Source of the DNA: Enterobacteria phage vB_EcoM_IME540
Sequence record: MT150133.1
Strand: one strand, 5' to 3'
DNA length: 64,000 nucleotides
Below the pieces are notes generated by a model. The model was not told the origin of the DNA. It saw only the letters and a list, made by a program, of their open reading frames with translations, and searched no databases. Both the position numbers and the translations under genes were made by a program. This document shows positions 17,331 through 61,263 of this stretch, piece after piece. The stretch's first letter is position 1. The number at the start of each line of letters is the position of its first letter.

Positions 17331-19148
17331 TTACGACATCCAGGCCTTACGGAGTTGAGGGTCATTACCAAGGAGCATTTCGAACTGTTCTTTCCAATCT
17401 TCAGGTAATTGAACAACATCAAATTTAGGGTCTTGAATCATTCGGCGGTATTCAGCTTTCTCAAGAGAACCTAGTCCTTTGATATACCGAATAGAATGTT
17501 TTGGTAGAGAGTCCTTAGCTTTGGTATAACTAGGAACATCATAGAACCATTCCTGTTCTTTACCGACCTGGGCAATAATTACCGGAGTTTTACAGAAACG
17601 TACTCGGCCTTGTTCGAACAATTCAGGCCATTGACTAAAGAAGGCTAGCAATGATGGATAAATCGAACCAGTACCATCCACATCGGCATCGGTCATAATA
17701 GCAATATTACGATAGTTGGTTTTCTCTGCGGGTTCACCAATAACCAATCCAGTGATTGCACAGATATCAAATAGTTCCTTGTTCTTCATGATATCTGTTG
17801 CTGTCATTCCCCAGGTATTCATAACCTTACCACGTAATGGATAGCCACCTTGAAGGTCTTTATTACGGACTTCAATGAAAGGACCCATAGCGGAATCACC
17901 TTCGGTTAGGAACAGGGTTGTATCAGCATCTTTGCCGTATAAGTTAGCTTTAATATGCTTATGGACCTTGGCTTTAGAAGCTTTCTTAGCGGCTTTAGTT
18001 TCAGCGGCCTTTTCAGCTGCTAATTTACGTGCTAAAGCAGCTTCAACGATAGGCATAATCAACCCATCGACCTTAAGAATAGCTGTGGCAATTTTCTTAG
18101 CATCAATTTGGATATGATTGCGAATCTCACCAAAAGGAGAGGTCAAACGTTCTTTAGTCTGTGAATCAAAACGCATGTTGCTCATATCACGAATGAACAT
18201 CACCATCGTAAGGCATTCTTTAACACGAGCTTTAGTTACTTCAATTCCACGGTATTTCTTTTTAATGCCTGGCAGAAGGTGTTCACAAATATCATCGAAT
18301 ACACATTCAACGTGGTGGCCACCATTCTTGGTGTGGATATTGTTTACATAAGTCAGTTGACGGAATCCATCCGGAGAAGGAGTGAACGCCATCGAAACAT
18401 TATCGGTTTCTTGGATTACAAAGTCTTCACCAAATTGCTTAGCATACTTTTTAAAGTTGCCATCTACTTTTTTACCATTAAAAGTAAATTGAATATCAGG
18501 ATAAACTACGGCCAGAGTTTGCAATCGGTCTAATGTAATATCCAGATAAATTTGTGACAGGCTATTTTCTTCGAAATGATTAAAGTCTGGGGTGAATATA
18601 ACCGAAGTACCCTTACCTTTAGATTTCTTAGTAGACCAACCTTTGTTTTCCATTCCGTTTGAACAGTTAACAGTAATCTCATTCTCACCATCAGAGGTGA
18701 TGCCTGTGAACAAAACAGAGAAGATATTAGTTAAACTACTACCGACACCATTCATGCCGCCTGTCTTACGCTCAGCGTCATCTCCAAAGTTACCACCTGC
18801 CTTTGGAATAGTCCATGCAGCTACAGGACCTGGAATCTGTTCACCATTTTGGTCGGTGACCATTGCTTGTGGAATACCACGACCATTATCAGAAACTGAA
18901 ACCTGGTTATTCTTAATTTGAACATCAATTTTATTTGCGAATTTAAAATTGGTACGAATAGCTTCATCGACAGAGTTATCAATGATTTCATCAATTAATT
19001 TAACCAGTCCAGGAACATAGTTTACCTGTGTAAAATTACCAAACAGGAATCGACCGTGAGCTTCATTAGCACTTGAGCCAATATACATCCCACTACGTTT
19101 TTTGATATGTTCAATGTCGGACAGTACTTTAATTTCATTCTTAATCAT
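17331..19148 (-). CDS. 39: DNA topoisomerase II large subunit, uninterrupted gp39+gp60 equivalent (GyrB-like)
   Basis: 605 aa with GHKL ATPase (NSVDEAI, DNGRGIP, GGMNGVGSS) and TOPRIM (LFLTEGDSA, IMTDADVDG) in one frame; SD GAGGAAATAAC. Confidence 0.95.
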   Translation of the reverse strand: MIKNEIKVLSDIEHIKKRSGMYIGSSANEAHGRFLFGNFTQVNYVPGLVKLIDEIIDNSVDEAIRTNFKFANKIDVQIKNNQVSVSDNGRGIPQAMVTDQNGEQIPGPVAAWTIPKAGGNFGDDAERKTGGMNGVGSSLTNIFSVLFTGITSDGENEITVNCSNGMENKGWSTKKSKGKGTSVIFTPDFNHFEENSLSQIYLDITLDRLQTLAVVYPDIQFTFNGKKVDGNFKKYAKQFGEDFVIQETDNVSMAFTPSPDGFRQLTYVNNIHTKNGGHHVECVFDDICEHLLPGIKKKYRGIEVTKARVKECLTMVMFIRDMSNMRFDSQTKERLTSPFGEIRNHIQIDAKKIATAILKVDGLIMPIVEAALARKLAAEKAAETKAAKKASKAKVHKHIKANLYGKDADTTLFLTEGDSAMGPFIEVRNKDLQGGYPLRGKVMNTWGMTATDIMKNKELFDICAITGLVIGEPAEKTNYRNIAIMTDADVDGTGSIYPSLLAFFSQWPELFEQGRVRFCKTPVIIAQVGKEQEWFYDVPSYTKAKDSLPKHSIRYIKGLGSLEKAEYRRMIQDPKFDVVQLPEDWKEQFEMLLGNDPQLRKAWMS

Positions 19149-19172
19149 GTTATTTCCTCATGTAGTAGGAGA

Positions 19173-19199
19173 ATATTATCCCATTTCACTTAAAGCATA
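19173..19199 (-). promoter_or_regulatory. MotA-dependent middle promoter (MotA box TATGCTTTA, 12 nt, -10 TAATAT)
   Basis: MotA-box consensus (a/t)(a/t)TGCTT(t/c)A at the expected distance from a TAnnnT -10, 24 nt upstream of gene 39 ATG. Confidence 0.55.
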
Positions 19200-19216
19200 A
19201 AAGGGCCGAAGCCCTT
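19199..19216 (-). terminator. intrinsic terminator (GGGC-TTCG-GCCC hairpin plus TTTT)
   Basis: Hairpin overlaps stop of lipoprotein gene; T-run merges into the MotA box. Confidence 0.5.
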
Positions 19217-19475
19217 AATCAAATCGAATGGTCGACTTTTTAAAGAATAAACCAGAACAAACAGTCCCTTCAACCCTTTTACCTGTCGGACCCACAGCAA
19301 TAAAGCCTGTACGTTGGAAATCATCTTCAGAACAGCCAAATAGGTTGTATCCTGTGATTTGGATTTGTTCGTAGCCATTTGCATCCAATACACGGGTAGC
19401 ATTATCGCCATCAGTACATCCAACCAACGAAACCGCTAATACGAGAGCTGCAATAGAACGATTAATATATTTCAT
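19215..19475 (-). CDS. predicted lipoprotein (86 aa)
   Basis: N-terminal signal MKYINRSIAALVLAVSLVGC with lipobox LVGC. Confidence 0.6.
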   Translation of the reverse strand: MKYINRSIAALVLAVSLVGCTDGDNATRVLDANGYEQIQITGYNLFGCSEDDFQRTGFIAVGPTGKRVEGTVCSGLFFKKSTIRFD

Positions 19476-19481
19476 AATTTC

Positions 19482-19658
19482 TCACTTAGTCAGCAGGTCG
19501 TAAAAACCGCCATTAACATGTTTAGGAGCCGAGACTAACCGAACAGCCAGCCGATGGCAATCAGGACAAACATCATTATCTCTTTCAGAGATTTTCTTGA
19601 TTTTTTCGTATTCTTTTGCACAGTCTTCAGATTGGCATTTGTAATCATAAAGTGGCAT
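19482..19658 (-). CDS. zinc-ribbon protein, FmdB-like (58 aa)
   Basis: Begins MPLYDYKCQSEDC ... CPDC, the FmdB-type MPxYxYxCxxC...CPxC signature; track ORF has an upstream alternative start. Confidence 0.55.
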   Translation of the reverse strand: MPLYDYKCQSEDCAKEYEKIKKISERDNDVCPDCHRLAVRLVSAPKHVNGGFYDLLTK

Positions 19659-19869
19659 TATAAGTTTCCTTCCAGAAGTCGGTGCCTTCAGCAGTGATTT
19701 CACGGAACACCGCATAGATAGGGTTTTTATCACCTTGATTTTCGTATACATAAACCGATGATAAATGAGAAAACATATCAGAATGTTCCTTTTGGACCAC
19801 GATTAAATCAGGGTTGAACAGAACATCTTCAAATTCTTCACGAGTCGAGTTCATAGTAACTTTAGCCAT
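19645..19869 (-). CDS. hypothetical protein (74 aa)
   Basis: ATG MAKVTMNST with SD GAGAGGAAAAT; downstream of an early promoter-like element. Confidence 0.6.
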   Translation of the reverse strand: MAKVTMNSTREEFEDVLFNPDLIVVQKEHSDMFSHLSSVYVYENQGDKNPIYAVFREITAEGTDFWKETYNATL

Positions 19870-19899
19870 TTTATTTTCCTCTCATTTGTTGATAGGGTA

Positions 19900-19929
19900 A
19901 TCTTATCACTACCCTACCATATTGTATAC
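19900..19929 (-). promoter_or_regulatory. early promoter-like element (-35 GTATAC, -10 TAAGAT, TGa)
   Basis: Weaker hexamers; inverted repeat GGTAGGGTA / TACCCTATC brackets the -10. Confidence 0.4.
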
Positions 19930-19942
19930 TGTTTTTTAAACT

Positions 19943-20509
19943 TTATGCAAAATGAATATCAGCATACTCAACGATAAAGCTCTCAGGAACAACCTTAAAG
20001 GTTCCAAGGAATACGATGTTATAGAGCTTAACGCCTTCTTCAACCCATTGGTCTGTGATGTAACCGGACATACTAGTGGTTTCATAAGTCGGACCATACT
20101 TGCAATTGTATTCAAACGGTTTAGGTGAAACGAAAAAGACACCTTTACCCAATTTCCATTTGAAATCAACACCAACATGAGATTGGTCAATAGTTTCAAC
20201 GTCTTGAGCTACTACGCCACGGATATCATTGCTTTCACATACATACCTATCATGGGATTCAACTTCTTCAACTACAGGAGCGATGTATCCGGTAAATTCA
20301 GTCGATTCCAAGAATTTAGCACGCACATAAGCGAATTGAGTTTCAGTCTGGCCATTTTTAGGAATGATACGCACTTTTACTTCAGAATTTTCTACACTGA
20401 CACCTTCTTTAAGTTGGATGCTAACAACTTCAACTAAACGGCCTGCAGCTTTTGAACGAGACTTTTTGGATACACGAACGATACCGCCGATATCGGAAAT
20501 AGTAATCAT
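19943..20509 (-). CDS. hypothetical protein, paralog of 20583..21338 (shared C-terminal domain)
   Basis: 188 aa; C-terminus GYITDQWVEEGVKLYNIVFLGTFKVVPESFIVEYADI aligns with CGWVTDQWVEDGVELLNVVHAGDFSVVPRSAVVNVLN of the upstream gene. Confidence 0.65.
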   Translation of the reverse strand: MITISDIGGIVRVSKKSRSKAAGRLVEVVSIQLKEGVSVENSEVKVRIIPKNGQTETQFAYVRAKFLESTEFTGYIAPVVEEVESHDRYVCESNDIRGVVAQDVETIDQSHVGVDFKWKLGKGVFFVSPKPFEYNCKYGPTYETTSMSGYITDQWVEEGVKLYNIVFLGTFKVVPESFIVEYADIHFA

Positions 20510-20551
20510 AATTTTTCTCTCTTGGTTAAAGGTTTATAATCCATGAGAGCC

Positions 20552-20580
20552 ATTATAACATGGCTCTCGATAAAGTAAAC
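20552..20580 (-). promoter_or_regulatory. early promoter (-35 GTTTAC, 17 nt, -10 TATAAT)
   Basis: Consensus hexamers; 7-bp inverted repeat GAGAGCC / GGCTCTC flanks the -10. Confidence 0.65.
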
Positions 20581-20582
20581 TA

Positions 20583-21338
20583 TTAATTCAATACATTAAC
20601 CACTGCACTACGAGGTACTACACTAAAATCACCAGCATGGACAACGTTCAGGAGCTCAACACCATCTTCAACCCACTGGTCTGTTACCCAACCACAGATA
20701 GGATTATCAAAAGGACGACGGATAGACACAGCAGCACACAACAGGTCGGTAGGGTCTTGTTCTTCAACTTCTTGGAACAGGATTAACTCTGCTTCATAAA
20801 CCAGGTTTTTCTCTACTTTGTTATTATCTAACCGGCGACCGTGGATGACATAAGATTTGGCAAACCAGTCACTTTTGGCAAATTCTTCAACAATAAATTC
20901 GCCTTCGCCAAAAACAGCAGTCAGAGTTTTATAACCAGAAATCAAGGCCTTAGTTTTAATTTCAGGTTCAACCAGTTTGTAGGTTTTGCCGATTTCGATA
21001 GTCTGAGTAGTCATAGGTGATTCCTTAATTTCCAGTGGTTTAACAGGGCATACATAAGTGCTTAAAACATCAAAATCAATTAGCTGGCTTGCCATTGGGG
21101 CCAAACGAATAAATGAATCAATTTCCCGTTGTGACAAGCGAATGGTGTGGATTTCCGGGACACCGCATTCTTGAACTGTTACAGATTTAATATTATCAAA
21201 CTCATCAGGTTCAATAGAAAGAATACGGAACTCGGTACCTTTAGTCATCTTTTTAAGGATGTCATAAGCTTGGTTGTGGAGCTTAAGGGCTGAAAACGGC
21301 GTAACAATATATTTGGCATTCGGATCAAAAGTGTTCAT
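20583..21338 (-). CDS. hypothetical protein, paralog of 19943..20509
   Basis: 251 aa; start overlaps upstream stop (ATGA); shared C-terminal motif TDQWVE.GV.L.N.V..G.F.VVP. Confidence 0.7.
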   Translation of the reverse strand: MNTFDPNAKYIVTPFSALKLHNQAYDILKKMTKGTEFRILSIEPDEFDNIKSVTVQECGVPEIHTIRLSQREIDSFIRLAPMASQLIDFDVLSTYVCPVKPLEIKESPMTTQTIEIGKTYKLVEPEIKTKALISGYKTLTAVFGEGEFIVEEFAKSDWFAKSYVIHGRRLDNNKVEKNLVYEAELILFQEVEEQDPTDLLCAAVSIRRPFDNPICGWVTDQWVEDGVELLNVVHAGDFSVVPRSAVVNVLN

Positions 21339-21844
21339 AATTTTCTCATTTCAATAAAATCTACAAGTTCGGCATGGGATTTGCGGAACATTACTTGGCG
21401 GCCGCCGATGACAACCTCATCTTCTGGTATTTCGTAAACAGCGAGGTAAAATCCTTTAGAAGATAATTCTTCACGCTCTTCACGAGTGAACCAGCGCATC
21501 ATATCATACTCGCTGGCAAAAGCAAAATGGTAGAGGTTAACAAACCAACCTGGAATATAATCATCAGAGCCTTCATAATCAGACCGTTTCCACTTGGTTC
21601 TAATGGCTTTATTAGAATTTTCTACCAACAACTTATCTTGACCTGGTAGCGGAATATTTTTATTAATGCTATGATGATGCCTAAAATTAGGTCTGTTGAA
21701 ACCTACTTCCAATAACCAACCTTCACTCCACGGGTCCATTGTACTTCTATATGGAGTCATTTGGATACAGAGGTCTCGACGTATTGTTACAGCATCTTCA
21801 TAATCTAGGATACTGAACGATGACTCCACTCGATAAATTTTCAT
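21335..21844 (-). CDS. hypothetical protein (169 aa)
   Basis: ATG MKIYRVESS after SD GAGGAG in conserved leader. Confidence 0.7.
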   Translation of the reverse strand: MKIYRVESSFSILDYEDAVTIRRDLCIQMTPYRSTMDPWSEGWLLEVGFNRPNFRHHHSINKNIPLPGQDKLLVENSNKAIRTKWKRSDYEGSDDYIPGWFVNLYHFAFASEYDMMRWFTREEREELSSKGFYLAVYEIPEDEVVIGGRQVMFRKSHAELVDFIEMRKL

Positions 21845-21871
21845 TTTGTTCTCCTCATGTTGATAGGGTAG

Positions 21872-21900
21872 ATAATATCATGTCATGAGGAGAAGTAAAC
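21872..21900 (-). promoter_or_regulatory. early promoter (-35 GTTTAC, TGa-extended -10 TATTAT)
   Basis: Spacer TTCTCCTCATG is the reverse complement of leader CATGAGGAGAA, which contains the SD. Confidence 0.6.
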
Positions 21901-21904
21901 ATTT

Positions 21905-22579
21905 TTATCGATTTTTTATACTTAATGGGTCAGGATTCTCAGGGACATCTTCCAGGCCCAAAGCGTATCGTTGGGCATATTTAAGCATCAGGATATCCTT
22001 AGCACAGTCATGGATGGAGTCATGGGCAACAAAGCCATTCAATGTTCCGTTAGGCAGAGGACACATGCTCAATCCACGAGTTAGTGAATATGCTTCAATA
22101 GCCGTACGGATATCGCGTTGGTTCCAGAATTTAACCGGTTCTAATTTACTGGTATCAATTTCATTCTCGGGAACACCTTCAGAACGATAAGCATCACGAA
22201 TAAGGTCGACTAAGATAGGAAAGTCAAATGACATTCCACGGCACCACATCTGTGATTTCCATTGGTCTACTTCGTTTTTACGGCAGTATTCCAGGAAATT
22301 GCCAAGGCCGATAGAAGTGGACACATCAATTTCGGATGGCGCCAGGTTTTTACGTGCTTCAGGCCCTTGCTCTTTCCACCACTGCAACGTGCTTTTAGAA
22401 AACAGTCGTCTATCACGTTGAGAAGCGAGGTCAAATTTAATACGAAGGCCTCGTTGAGTAAGCTCTTCAAACGTTTCTACAACCTCTGGATTAGGGTCAT
22501 AAGCAATTACCGCGAGGTCAATAACCGCCGCATTTTGGGTTGTGGCAAAGGTTTCGAAGTCGATAATTATATCTTTCAT
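21905..22579 (-). CDS. dexA: exonuclease A (DexA), DEDDh 3'-5' exonuclease
   Basis: Matches recalled T4 DexA (IIIDFET, AVIDLAVIA.DPNPEVVETF.EL, WCRGMSFDFPILVDLIRD, FVAHDSIHDCAKDILM.KYA). Confidence 0.9.
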   Translation of the reverse strand: MKDIIIDFETFATTQNAAVIDLAVIAYDPNPEVVETFEELTQRGLRIKFDLASQRDRRLFSKSTLQWWKEQGPEARKNLAPSEIDVSTSIGLGNFLEYCRKNEVDQWKSQMWCRGMSFDFPILVDLIRDAYRSEGVPENEIDTSKLEPVKFWNQRDIRTAIEAYSLTRGLSMCPLPNGTLNGFVAHDSIHDCAKDILMLKYAQRYALGLEDVPENPDPLSIKNR

Positions 22580-22815
22580 TTAACATACCTCATAAGGTCA
22601 CGGATTTGACCGACGGTGTAGTCTTCAATATAAACCGAAGAGATATTGTCGTCCATCAGTTTTTGTACAGCAATAAAATCACTTTCAATCTCTTTAAGAG
22701 AATGCAAGACCTTATGAGCCTTGCCACGAATATTTGTATCGTCTTGGTTGACCTTAATAATATATTCGGTTTCAAATTTCAACTTATAAAATTGGTCTTT
22801 AGTTACTTTAATCAT
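22576..22815 (-). CDS. hypothetical protein (79 aa, dda.1-like position)
   Basis: Track ORF trimmed to ATG MIKVTKDQ after SD GAGGAAAAT; stop overlaps dexA start (ATGA). Confidence 0.6.
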   Translation of the reverse strand: MIKVTKDQFYKLKFETEYIIKVNQDDTNIRGKAHKVLHSLKEIESDFIAVQKLMDDNISSVYIEDYTVGQIRDLMRYVK

Positions 22816-22822
22816 ATTTTCC

Positions 22823-24154
22823 TCAAACGTAATAAGCGTCAGTACGAGCACGAGTAATACTAACATAAGCCAGCTGTGAAGCTAAATTCACATCAGCCAT
22901 GTGCATACACGGGGTATAGATGAAACTGTTCTGGACTGTGAGGCCTTGTGATTTATGGACCGTGCTTACAGGAAGAGCTCGAACCTTAGTAAACATTCTC
23001 TTAGCTTTCCAAAAATCAGCCCACTTAGGTTTCTTACCCGTTCCACGCATGGCTTTGTACTCAGTAGCAACCTTAGCCAAGAAATAATGAAACTTCTCAA
23101 CTGAAGCCTCATCGATAACCTTTAAATGCTCTACGTAATACTCATCATCTTCATCGACGGATTCTACTTGAAGGTCCCAGTAATTAATCATTTGACGGGT
23201 GCCTACATCCTTAGCAGACAAGAACAATGAGGTGTGGTTCACATCCAGAATACGAACCATTTGTCCGTTATTAAAAATGGTTTCAGAGAATTTCTTACCG
23301 TCGTATTCAAGTTCCTTCATAAAAGGCTCTTGCATCACTAGGATTTCGCCCTTGATATAAGGCGCATCGGTTTCATAAAGCTTTTTACGAATAATACTAT
23401 TCAGCTTTTCAACCGATTTATTTGTATAAGCAAACATCCTATTTTCAAATAAGGCATCCGCGTCTTTTACGATGGAAAAATAATTCATCATAAAATCTTT
23501 TAAAGCAGTTTGAGATTTAAAGCCATGGACACCATGTCCTTCGAATACACAATCTCTAAACCATCCGCCATTACGGATTTCGGTAGCCACCTCAATGATA
23601 GGAGCATTACTACGCATTACTTCAGTCAAATGCAATTGCTTGATTTTTGGATGAGTAAAGAACGGAGACAACTGTGGACTACCATCACTTCCAGGTTCCA
23701 CTGGCTGTAGCTGAGCTCTGTCGCCAATCCCTAATACAGTACACCATGGCGGCACAGAAGATTCGATAATCTTAAACAGCTTACCGTCAATCATCGAGCC
23801 TTCATCAACGACCAGCACATTACATTTGCTCAAGTCAGGAGCTTCGCGTTGTTCAAAGATGTCCTGGTCTTCGTATGTGGTAGGGTTAATCTTTAAGATT
23901 CTATGGATTGTTGATGCTTCTTGACCTGCGAGTTTCGACAACACCTTTTTGGCCGCATGAGTAGGTGCAGTCAAAATAACTCCGAGTTCACCATTCTTGA
24001 CTAGATGGTCAAGAATAAATTTGGTAAGGGTTGTTTTACCCGTACCGGCAGGGCCATTCAATGTAATCCATTCGCCCTTACGTCGTTTAATGGCTTCAAT
24101 GATTTCTTTAAAAGCCGTCCTCTGGCCGATATTCAAGTCTTCAAATGTAATCAT
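22823..24154 (-). CDS. dda: Dda DNA helicase (SF1B)
   Basis: 443 aa; matches recalled T4 Dda (INGPAGTGKTTLTKFI, ILAAPTHAAKK.LSKL.G.EASTIH, NGQ.VRI, ALP.ST.HK.QG); Walker A present. Confidence 0.95.
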   Translation of the reverse strand: MITFEDLNIGQRTAFKEIIEAIKRRKGEWITLNGPAGTGKTTLTKFILDHLVKNGELGVILTAPTHAAKKVLSKLAGQEASTIHRILKINPTTYEDQDIFEQREAPDLSKCNVLVVDEGSMIDGKLFKIIESSVPPWCTVLGIGDRAQLQPVEPGSDGSPQLSPFFTHPKIKQLHLTEVMRSNAPIIEVATEIRNGGWFRDCVFEGHGVHGFKSQTALKDFMMNYFSIVKDADALFENRMFAYTNKSVEKLNSIIRKKLYETDAPYIKGEILVMQEPFMKELEYDGKKFSETIFNNGQMVRILDVNHTSLFLSAKDVGTRQMINYWDLQVESVDEDDEYYVEHLKVIDEASVEKFHYFLAKVATEYKAMRGTGKKPKWADFWKAKRMFTKVRALPVSTVHKSQGLTVQNSFIYTPCMHMADVNLASQLAYVSITRARTDAYYV

Positions 24155-26585: not shown

Positions 26586-26614
26586 ATTATAACATGAAGG
26601 GAGGAGGTGTAAAA
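26586..26614 (-). promoter_or_regulatory. early promoter-like element (-35 TTTTAC, -10 TATAAT)
   Basis: Spacer ACCTCC is complementary to the SD GGAGGT of the downstream gene. Confidence 0.5.
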
Positions 26615-61234: not shown

Positions 61235-61263
61235 ATAGTATCATTTCTACTGGAGATGTAAAC
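61235..61263 (-). promoter_or_regulatory. early promoter (-35 GTTTAC, TGa-extended -10 TACTAT)
   Basis: Spacer CTCCAGTAG is complementary to leader CTACTGGAG, which contains the SD. Confidence 0.6.

Follow-up and report, generated by a model that had tools for sequence, protein, structure and literature searches.

Products of the motB and motB.1 genes of a Dhakavirus: a shared C-terminal domain on different N-terminal modules

The MotB protein of bacteriophage T4, an early protein described as a 'modifier of transcription', is a tight but sequence-nonspecific DNA binder that copurifies with H-NS and StpA and alters the H-NS footprint; it doubles the burst size and is toxic in E. coli (PMC6070864, PMC7827196). 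According to the authors, DNA binding could reside in either of its two domains; weak HHpred matches, eIF5A being the published one, were the basis for assigning the C-terminal domain (CTD) to the OB folds (PMC7827196). A CTD common to MotB and MotB.1, the differing N-termini and the idea of a duplication were published in the same work, a table of which also lists MX01_10 and VR5_011, counterparts of the 251-aa protein analysed here (Patterson-West et al., 2021; PMC7827196). T4 MotB.1 is a dispensable early protein, the deletion of which has no phenotype under laboratory conditions (PMC12152347), and its N-terminal barrel has been described as LSm/SH3-like and as a relative of GoF (Kim et al., 2025; PMC12152347).

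The DNA analysed here, a stretch of 64 kb referred to as the window, is that of a Dhakavirus and matches Salmonella phage ABTNLsp5 at 98%. Three genes of the minus strand are considered:

19943..20509, minus strand: motB, 188 aa (coordinates include the stop codon); PF17613 E 1.3e-61, phrog_1671 E 1.7e-71
20583..21338, minus strand: motB.1 orthologue, long variant, 251 aa (stop codon included); phrog_2333 E 1.6e-78
21335..21844, minus strand: motB.2, 169 aa, from the open reading frame list; phrog_1106; annotated motB.2 in IME08 and VR5

The 188-aa protein is 100% identical to IME540 protein P0121 and scores 207.6 bits with Pfam PF17613 (cutoff 25). Its best stretch corresponds to profile positions 65-161, the N-terminal domain (NTD) scanned alone corresponds to positions 2-67, and the phrog_1671 match spans residues 5-188. 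In the 251-aa protein the phrog_2333 match spans residues 80-251; T4 MotB.1 matches the same family (E 1.8e-68), and the counterpart VR5_011 is already annotated MotB.1. The motB family PF17613 also scores 35.3 bits on residues 211-246 of MotB.1, above the same cutoff of 25.

The gene order dexA, motB.2, motB.1, motB, cef, 39.2, 39.1, 39 is that of T4, IME08 and VR5. Within this dexA-39 early region, motB lies between motB.1 and cef, and motB.1 lies, in the direction of transcription, downstream of motB.2 and immediately upstream of motB. Synteny of the motB/motB.1 locus holds with T4, IME08, ABTNLsp5 and VR5, which bears out the placement of the pair at the T4 motB region in the initial annotation; the 188-aa product is MotB itself, as identified by PF17613. 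The same annotation had put the pair upstream of dexA, but because both genes are on the minus strand they are transcriptionally downstream of it. The motB and motB.1 pair was found in hundreds of phage records (about 700), T4 included. As a whole, these observations are best explained, with high probability, by the two genes being Dhakavirus orthologues of T4 motB and motB.1 and old tandem paralogues of each other. The open reading frames that the region has on its plus strand are short and merely shadow the genes of the minus strand. A scan of positions 19000-23000 with Rfam gave nothing near any gathering score, and the composition profile of the region revealed no anomaly.

Two features carry the similarity between the proteins:

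19946..20182, minus strand: MotB CTD, aa 110-188; predicted five-strand beta domain of the MotB type with a long first hairpin
20586..20762, minus strand: MotB.1 CTD, aa 193-251; predicted shared beta domain of the MotB.1 type, acidic

The motif on which the initial annotation was based is present in both proteins, as TDQWVEEGVKLYNIVFLGTFKVVPESFIV in MotB and as TDQWVEDGVELLNVVHAGDFSVVPRSAVV in MotB.1, and the pattern DQW.E.G has just these two matches in a six-frame translation of the 64-kb window. In BLASTP the C-terminal segments of MotB and MotB.1 are identical at 19/34 positions and positive at 26/34 (E 4e-11), and no significant similarity was detected between the N-terminal parts; the claim of a closely similar C-terminal segment attached to unrelated N-terminal regions is thus confirmed. 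The family profiles of MotB 100-182 and MotB.1 187-249 also align, over 63 columns (hhalign, 98.3%, E 1.9e-14), around a core that reads G(W/Y)(V/I)TDQW(V/I)E(D/E)GV.L.N.V..G...V.P.S. The shared segment had been given as about 35 aa; the shared unit is really about 60-80 aa.

Structure prediction with AlphaFold2 (AF2) places five strands in this segment in both proteins, at 123-135, 141-157, 160-167, 170-175 and 179-182 in MotB (pLDDT 79-93) and at 203-206, 214-224, 227-234, 237-242 and 246-249 in MotB.1 (pLDDT 62-77). In both proteins a stretch of pLDDT below 50 sets the CTD off from the N-terminal part, and the first hairpin of the MotB CTD carries insertions of 7 and 11 residues. On these models the shared CTD is a discrete five-strand beta domain, as had been proposed for verification. 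Net charges are +5 for the MotB NTD, -2 for the MotB CTD and -6 for the MotB.1 CTD.

CTDs of the MotB.1 type are 62-84% identical to one another, and comparisons across types give 34-43%; the MotB.1 CTD of the window is 84% identical to that of T4 MotB.1 and 40-42% identical to MotB CTDs. The probability that the similarity arose by chance, through faulty assembly or through recent duplication on the spot, the last being a reservation raised in the initial annotation, is practically nil, and this explanation is already refuted: nothing speaks for it except the adjacency of the two copies, with a 60-nt direct repeat of 73% identity, whereas nucleotide identity of the motB and motB.1 cores is merely 62%, third codon positions are near saturation (14/34 identical, or 41%, as opposed to 71-74% at the first and second positions), the regions that flank the core show no relationship between the two genes, the pair is present in T4 and the other records counted above, and the two E-values are highly significant. 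Judged from these sequence comparisons, the paralogue duplication is old and under purifying selection and is not an artefact.

The N-terminal part of MotB comprises two features:

20300..20509, minus strand: MotB NTD, aa 1-70; predicted basic KOW/SH3-like beta domain with a conserved RVSxxSRSKAAG segment
20183..20299, minus strand: MotB linker, aa 71-109; predicted disordered, pLDDT below 50 (AF2)

AF2 models the NTD, for which the KOW label is taken from PMC7827196, as a four-strand domain (10-13, 25-32, 43-48 and 58-63; pLDDT 64-88), and V13, S14, S17, S19 and G23 are invariant among 46 homologues. The linker holds a 21-aa segment, VESHDRYVCESNDIRGVVAQD, which is lacking in T4 MotB and which, in the family alignment, is present in some members of the MotB family and absent in others; MAFFT aligns it with the linker motif of the PEi20, Potts1 and Aplg8 proteins.

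Upstream of its CTD, MotB.1 is composed of three features:

20763..21005, minus strand: MotB.1 central barrel, aa 112-192; predicted GoF-like LSm/SH3-type module, equivalent of the T4 MotB.1 NTD
21006..21089, minus strand: MotB.1 linker, aa 84-111; conserved, predicted disordered, motif LIDFDVxSTYVCPVKPLEIKE
21090..21338, minus strand: extra N-terminal module, aa 1-83; in a few Dhakavirus-type phages only

The AF2 model of MotB.1 is modest (mean pLDDT 63.5). Its central barrel, residues 112-192, which align with the T4 MotB.1 NTD, has the order beta-alpha-beta-beta-beta-alpha-beta (pLDDT 76-84), and a weak match to the GoF family phrog_622 was obtained with whole MotB.1 (E 3.6e-4) and with the module alone (E 8e-3). 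The linker is modelled at pLDDT 23-31; D88, D90, S93, Y95, K100, P101 and L102 are nearly invariant in it, and it runs up to Met109, ahead of which lies AAGGA. In Aplg8, PEi20 and Potts1 the linker motif stands between the barrel and the CTD.

The extra module was detected by tblastn in 9 phage records, which correspond to 6 phages, and a phmmer search of 1.84 billion representatives returned its own cluster. Two other phmmer matches, a T9SS cargo protein and a TPR-STAND protein, were rejected as chance matches inflated by repeats. The module has no PHROG or Pfam match, and BLASTP comparisons with IME08 GoF and with the rest of MotB.1 were not significant. In the AF2 model its secondary-structure elements follow the order of those in the central barrel, with low confidence (pLDDT 54-60); the module aligned with a broadened barrel profile over 64-68 colinear columns (hhalign, E 1.1e-3, probability 20%) and not significantly with a narrow one. 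The goF gene is absent from the 64-kb window, and we considered the module as a GoF-derived replacement of the missing gene; goF and the module occur together in VR5 and IME341, therefore there is no replacement relationship and this idea was rejected. Over the first 84 motB.1 codons dN/dS amounts to 0.13-0.16, a value as low as that of the CTD. We found no description of an extra N-terminal module in the papers on MotB and MotB.1 that we consulted; on sequence grounds, a module of about 83 aa in MotB.1 that is rare and under selection is a new, minor detail.

These codons would be untranslated if the 251-aa reading frame were over-extended and the real MotB.1 started at Met109, as a 143-aa protein with 108 untranslated codons upstream. 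T4 MotB.1 aligns from Met109, AAGGA lies 7 nt upstream of it, residues 78-111 are predicted to be disordered, and a 141-aa product starting at this Met is annotated in some records (PP01). We nevertheless regard this start as very unlikely: dN/dS is CTD-like across the first 84 codons, the amino-acid sequence of the linker motif hardly varies, and the long reading frame is uninterrupted, with an ATG that shares bases with the motB.2 stop codon in the manner typical of coupled translation. The '141-aa MotB.1 type' was rejected as an argument for internal initiation: in PP01 the reading frame is open over 180 aa, and its annotation selects a shorter start. Both motB.1 starts could be in use. The predicted expression signals of the region are as follows:

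20552..20580, minus strand: motB early-type sigma-70 promoter, GTTTAC, 17 nt, TATAAT, with TG upstream
20545..20568, minus strand: hairpin GAGAGCCAT-GTTATA-ATGGCTCTC, enclosing the motB -10 element, 3' of the motB.1 stop codon
21872..21900, minus strand: early-type promoter upstream of motB.2, GTTTAC, 17 nt, TATTAT, one mismatch, from the promoter scan
21849..21894, minus strand: hairpin around the -10 element of the motB.2 promoter, RNA fold -19.5 kcal/mol, z -4.6

All promoter calls are consensus matches. The motB promoter has zero mismatches to the pattern, was also returned by the promoter scan and lies inside the 73-bp motB.1-motB spacer. It is conserved in T4, IME08, VR5, NC-G, pSs-1 and Aplg8; VR26 has GTGTAC/GTTTAG aligned at the -35 element, with no intact GTTTAC. 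The hairpin at 20545-20568 (RNA fold -21.2 kcal/mol, z -5.4) keeps its pairing with different stems in T4, pSs-1, VR26, PEi20 and Potts1. GAGGAG, the Shine-Dalgarno sequence of motB.2, falls within the 3' arm of the hairpin at 21849-21894. The start codon of motB.1 and the stop codon of motB.2 overlap (ATGA at 21335-21338), so that the two genes are probably co-translated and co-transcribed, and the sequence at 21872-21900 is likely to be the promoter for motB.2 and motB.1. Each gene of the pair had been credited with an early promoter of its own. This is so for motB (GTTTAC-17-TATAAT, 20580-20552) but not for motB.1, for which the next promoter lies upstream of motB.2. As far as sequence can tell, motB would be expressed from its own strong early-type promoter, and motB.1 would be the second gene of a motB.2-motB.1 unit under the promoter upstream of motB.2.

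Comparison of family members gave several architectures: barrel and CTD in the T4 type; barrel, linker motif and CTD in the Aplg8 type; linker motif, barrel and CTD in the IME08 type; two tandem barrels in the UPEC01/VR26 type (hhalign 97.4%, E 1.6e-11); and extra module, linker motif, barrel and CTD in the type present here. At the sequence level the family is thus a mosaic of small barrels, linker motif and CTD, again a new but minor detail. A homologue search with the CTD alone yielded four short proteins only and therefore provides no census of architectures. The single-copy proteins of PEi20 and Potts1 are matched full length by the MotB family and over the CTD by the MotB.1 family.

The duplicated module with a diversified N-terminus proposed in the initial annotation is supported by these data, and had already been stated in the literature (PMC7827196). 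The sequences suggest a likely history in which an ancestral gene made of a KOW domain and a MotB.1-type CTD was duplicated. One copy would have kept the KOW domain, while its CTD diverged and gained the hairpin insertion; the other would have kept the CTD and swapped its N-terminus for GoF-like barrels. Single-copy genes with a KOW domain and a MotB.1-type CTD exist in Kanagawavirus and Marfavirus, where the ancestral type of gene would have persisted. A less probable alternative is that recombination joined a free-standing or foreign CTD to different N-terminal barrels, with no whole-gene duplication followed by N-terminus replacement. The mosaic architectures listed above agree with such shuffling, as do stand-alone CTD-only short reading frames of 35-101 aa, the CTD-type 29-aa peptide reported in RB69 (PMC7827196) and GoF, in which a barrel of this type goes with another C-terminus. 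However, in hundreds of genomes motB and motB.1 lie side by side and point the same way, as expected for the product of a tandem duplication; moreover, shuffling and duplication are not mutually exclusive, and either leads to the same present-day anatomy.

The shared CTD would be a common anchoring or partner-binding module, joined via a disordered linker to a basic KOW/SH3-like domain in MotB and to a GoF-type LSm/SH3-like barrel, plus the module of about 83 aa, in MotB.1. Ligand specificity would come from the N-terminal barrels, the basic KOW domain recognizing duplex DNA in MotB and the LSm-like barrels recognizing RNA or some other ligand in MotB.1. Because the CTD is acidic in both proteins, which is an indirect argument, we consider it more likely to bind a protein partner or to self-associate than to touch DNA directly. 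A more specific proposal, which we hold to be rather doubtful, is that the CTD is an acidic SH3/Tudor-like adaptor to one partner (H-NS/StpA, the nucleoid, or each other) and not an OB-fold DNA binder, and that MotB.1 of this lineage is a three-barrel protein whose extra module is a highly diverged third GoF-type barrel. If this were true, MotB.1 would couple an array of RNA- or ligand-binding barrels to the target that MotB reaches via DNA.

In conclusion, the observation is correct but ordinary: paralogy, the shared CTD and the duplication origin were already known, the pair is already annotated as motB and motB.1 and is caught by one Pfam family, and the main value of the analysis is that of a clean negative. 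The module map, according to which small beta barrels, linker motif and CTD recombine freely in T-even early regions, the single-copy genes, and the charge pattern, which suggests which MotB domain to examine first for DNA binding, could help groups that work on MotB and H-NS; the overall picture is unchanged.

Searches of PDB sequences, at E up to 10 with the MotB family profile, gave nothing, and MotB and MotB.1 sequences gave nothing meaningful against the same sequences. The best structural matches to both models, with marginal scores, were tandem Tudor/KOW arrays (53BP1, UHRF1, Spt5 KOW6-7) and eIF5A (KOW + OB), which are likewise strings of small SH3-like beta barrels on linkers, a resemblance of fold class only. 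GoF (phrog_622) is weakly matched by the MotB.1 central barrel, and AlphaFold work groups both (PMC12152347); GoF and Frd.2 lack a MotB-type CTD, unlike MotB.1. T4 MotB.1 (NP_049627; phrog_2333) occupies the same locus, has a CTD 84% identical to that of the 251-aa protein and an LSm-like NTD homologous to its central barrel; it is 143 aa long versus 251 aa here, the approximately 108 extra N-terminal residues corresponding to the module of about 83 aa and the linker motif. Finally, T4 MotB (PF17613; Patterson-West et al., 2018, 2021) is homologous over its full length (54% identity to T4-type cluster P0187), lies at the same position between motB.1 and cef behind the same early-type promoter, and has the same two-domain plan, a basic KOW-like NTD followed by a beta CTD.

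Two minus-strand ORFs of 188 and 251 aa were found where the initial annotation had placed them. The locus comprises:

17331..19148, minus strand, gene 39
19645..19869, minus strand, cef (Pfam T4_Cef, E 1e-33)
19943..20509, minus strand, motB, 188 aa (ORF list)
20583..21338, minus strand, motB.1, 251 aa (ORF list)
21335..21844, minus strand, motB.2, 169 aa (ORF list)
21905..22579, minus strand, dexA

By rising coordinate, this strand carries 39, a 39.1-like ORF, a Zn-ribbon 39.2-like ORF, cef, motB, motB.1, motB.2, dexA and dda. T4 is transcribed in the order dda, dexA.2, dexA.1, dexA, motB.2, motB.1, motB, cef, goF, 39.2, 39.1, 39, and the annotations of IME08 and VR5 keep that order, which identifies the 188-, 251- and 169-aa genes as motB, motB.1 and motB.2. 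The pair thus occupies the T4 motB position, as had been proposed; being on the minus strand, it lies transcriptionally downstream of dexA and not upstream. Two Dhakavirus members come close to the region, Salmonella phage vB_SalM_ABTNLsp5 at 98% identity and Escherichia phage MX01 at 95%, and the region has matches in about 700 T-even phage records. In IME08, VR5, IME341 and T4 goF is present; here, and in ABTNLsp5 and MX01, it is missing from the interval between 39.2 and cef (19482-19869, minus strand). The 89-aa ORF at 19482..19751 (minus strand), which overlaps the cef end, over-extends the 59-aa Zn-ribbon 39.2 gene.

BLASTP aligned MotB 147-180 with MotB.1 214-247 without gaps (19/34 identical, 26/34 positive, E 4e-11) and detected no further significant similarity between the two proteins outside these segments, in agreement with the shared C-terminus and unrelated N-terminal regions first described. 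Profiles from family alignments of 46 MotB and 40 MotB.1 sequences matched over 63 columns with 98.3% probability and E 1.9e-14 (MotB 100-182 vs MotB.1 187-249), with two MotB insertions of 7 and 11 residues inside the match; the common unit is therefore about 60-80 residues long, not about 35 as had been estimated. In AF2 models built on the same alignments (mean pLDDT 71.5 for MotB, 63.5 for MotB.1), the shared segment is predicted to form a small, separate beta domain in each protein, which answers the question of a discrete C-terminal fold. It is a five-strand meander in which a one-turn helix precedes the last strand (MotB 123-135, 141-157, 160-167, 170-175 and 179-182, pLDDT 79-93; five strands within MotB.1 203-249, pLDDT 62-77). 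In MotB, a disordered stretch (71-109) follows an N-terminal beta domain, classed as KOW in PMC7827196 (strands 10-13, 25-32, 43-48, 58-63). MotB.1 has three folded parts: residues 12-79 (beta-alpha-beta-beta-beta-alpha, pLDDT 54-60), residues 119-191 (the same order plus a last strand, pLDDT 76-84), separated from the first by disordered residues 78-111, and the C-terminal domain.

A six-frame translation of the window contains the C-terminal motif just twice. Between motB and motB.1 the 34-codon core has 62% nucleotide identity, with 24/34 first, 25/34 second and 14/34 third positions matching; the longest direct DNA repeat that the two genes share measures 60 nt, at 73% identity. Third positions near saturation beside a conserved protein indicate an ancient duplication kept by purifying selection; together with the 62% core identity, they rule out a recent duplication or artefact, the alternative that the initial annotation had raised. 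Identity of the C-terminal domain is 62-84% within the MotB.1 type, including the single-copy proteins of PEi20 and Potts1, 34-43% between MotB and MotB.1 types, and 55% between the window's MotB and T4 MotB. The MotB.1-type domain is far more conserved than any N-terminal module.

An architecture map of MotB.1 was drawn from its family alignment and a MAFFT alignment including the PEi20 and Potts1 proteins, "barrel" denoting the GoF-like LSm/SH3-type module:

T4 type: barrel, C-terminal domain
Aplg8 type: barrel, linker motif, C-terminal domain
IME08 / pSs-1 type: short leader, linker motif, barrel, C-terminal domain
UPEC01 / VR26 type: linker motif, barrel, barrel, C-terminal domain
Window type: extra module, linker motif, barrel, C-terminal domain

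The second barrel of the UPEC01/VR26 type is a clear duplicate (hhalign 97.4%, E 1.6e-11). By this tandem duplication, MotB.1 of VR26 (locus L007, 913-1665) and of the UPEC01 type (proteins P0108-P0119) reaches 250-251 aa, similar to the window's MotB.1, which instead has an extra N-terminal module. The linker motif, ..(I/V)D(F/M)D(V/I)..(T/M)Y....(K/L)P, is nearly invariant and predicted to be disordered; in the window it reads LIDFDVxSTYVCPVKPLEIKE (MotB.1 aa 84-111, 21006-21089, minus strand). Its position varies among MotB.1 variants and it recurs in single-copy MotB-like proteins, so that the segment behaves like a short linear motif, which we take to be loosely reminiscent of acidic-hydrophobic clamp-binding peptides. 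The window's MotB linker contains a 21-aa insertion (aa 85-105, 20195-20257, minus strand; VESHDRYVCESNDIRGVVAQD), predicted disordered, variably present among close relatives and not found in T4 MotB; MAFFT sets it (RYVCESNDIRGVV...) against the linker motif, a placement that carries no significance score. In PP01, the 141-aa annotation of MotB.1 (L011, 1084-1626) reflects a short start choice inside an open 180-aa ORF. The tandem array of PF17613 genes has three members in PP01 and Aplg8, namely motB.1, motB and a second motB-like gene.

Most MotB.1 relatives have about 180 aa, and T4 MotB.1 has 143. Residues 1-84 of the 251-aa protein were found in only nine phage records, representing six phages (ABTNLsp5, MX01, IME341, ESCO10, VR5 and NC-G), and phmmer, run exhaustively against 1.84 billion representatives, matched the extra module (aa 1-83) to its own cluster only; the two remaining matches were rejected as chance, repeat-inflated hits. 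Judged from its dN/dS vs VR5 and NC-G (0.13-0.16, the same as for the C-terminal domain) and from the overlap of the motB.1 ATG with the motB.2 stop, the module is translated. Its predicted secondary-structure order is that of the central barrel (aa 112-192), and the linker motif follows it here as it follows the barrel in Aplg8 MotB.1. A broadened barrel profile aligned colinearly with it over 64-68 columns (E 1.1e-3, probability just 20%); a narrower barrel profile found nothing in it. We lean towards regarding the extra module as a third GoF-type barrel that has diverged from the others. Met109, where T4 MotB.1 begins, has AAGGA 7 nt before it (21012-21030, minus strand), as part of the conserved IKE codons; a 143-aa isoform from this internal start is conceivable.

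Where the E. coli T-evens carry two genes, Edwardsiella phage PEi20 (Kanagawavirus) and Klebsiella phage Potts1 (Marfavirus) each carry one:

L009 637-1071, single-copy gene of Potts1
L010 625-1080, single-copy gene of PEi20

Each product joins a MotB-type KOW N-terminus and the linker motif to a MotB.1-type C-terminal domain devoid of the MotB hairpin insertion. This combination cannot arise from today's paralogues by a simple deletion, because motB.1 lies 5' of motB. The PEi20/Potts1 architecture may be the ancestral form. In the simplest history, such a gene would have duplicated in the E. coli T-even lineage; the KOW-bearing copy would then have diverged in its C-terminal domain and the other would have exchanged its N-terminus for GoF-like barrels. 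Module shuffling in place of whole-gene duplication is a viable alternative, favoured by stand-alone ORFs of 35-101 aa (P0235-P0238, phage and metagenome records) that are essentially a MotB.1-type C-terminal domain only, comparable to a 29-aa RB69 peptide (PMC7827196).

Each gene had been credited with its own early promoter, which holds for motB and not for motB.1, whose start has no spacer ahead of it:

20580-20552, minus strand, motB early-type promoter, GTTTAC-17-TATAAT with TG upstream, zero mismatches, in the 73-bp motB.1-motB spacer
21900-21872, minus strand, nearest early-type promoter for motB.1, one mismatch, upstream of motB.2
20545-20568, minus strand, 9-bp hairpin GAGAGCCAT/ATGGCTCTC, -21.2 kcal/mol, z -5.4
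21849-21894, minus strand, hairpin at the motB.2 promoter
Near 61263, 54448, 26614 and 11875, minus strand, starts of promoters with like hairpins

The motB promoter is conserved in T4, IME08, VR5, NC-G, pSs-1 and Aplg8; in the alignment, VR26 shows a variant -35 element (GTGTAC/GTTTAG). The 20545-20568 hairpin, just 3' of the motB.1 stop codon, encloses the -10 element. Across the window and loci L001 and L006-L010, pairing is kept with other stem sequences (GGGACCA/TGGTCCC in T4 and pSs-1, one G.U pair in VR26, GTAGG/CCTAC in PEi20, GGTAGGA/TCCTACC in Potts1), which suggests selection for structure. A canonical terminator was rejected, the hairpin having no U tail; it may serve to stabilise the 3' end of read-through RNA or to signal its processing. 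Several early-type promoters in the window lie within strong hairpins (z -3.9 to -7.8). At 21900, 61263, 54448 and 11875 the 5' arm is in the spacer (CTCC...) and the 3' arm contains the Shine-Dalgarno sequence (GGAG) of the gene that follows; at 26614 the whole stem is downstream of the -10 element. Transcripts from the promoter itself would not contain the 5' arm and would leave the Shine-Dalgarno sequence free, and read-through RNA from upstream would occlude it, a principle known for T4 genes e, soc, 49 and I-TevI (PMC3014915).

According to published work, T4 MotB binds DNA, modified or not, tightly and irrespective of sequence; it also copurifies with H-NS and StpA, changes the H-NS footprint, is toxic in E. 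coli and has a two-fold effect on burst size. Either of its domains could be the DNA binder (PMC7827196). The MotB N-terminal domain has a charge of +5 and an invariant RVSxxSRSKAAG segment; the C-terminal domain is acidic in both proteins (MotB -2, MotB.1 -6), as is its invariant core, TDQWxE(D/E)G. From this charge pattern and the high conservation of the MotB.1-type domain, we infer that the C-terminal domain would be a shared module for partner binding or self-association, and that ligand specificity would come from the N-terminal barrels.

In conclusion, the proposed duplicated module with a diversified N-terminus is supported, and it is a rediscovery: the common C-terminal domain, the differing N-termini and the idea of a duplication were all put forward by Patterson-West et al. 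2021. The Pfam motB model PF17613 reaches 207.6 bits for the 188-aa protein and 35.3 bits (cutoff 25) at residues 211-246 of the 251-aa protein, and is present in all homologues retrieved with either as query; public domain databases thus already unite motB and motB.1. What is added here to a published family are refinements of low general interest: how large the shared domain is, the rare extra module, the map of mosaic architectures, the single-copy form joining KOW to a MotB.1-type C-terminal domain and the promoter correction. In that family, 40 phage genomes beyond T4 have both motB and motB.1, and 102 homologues fall in four N-terminus categories (Patterson-West et al. 2021, PMC7827196).
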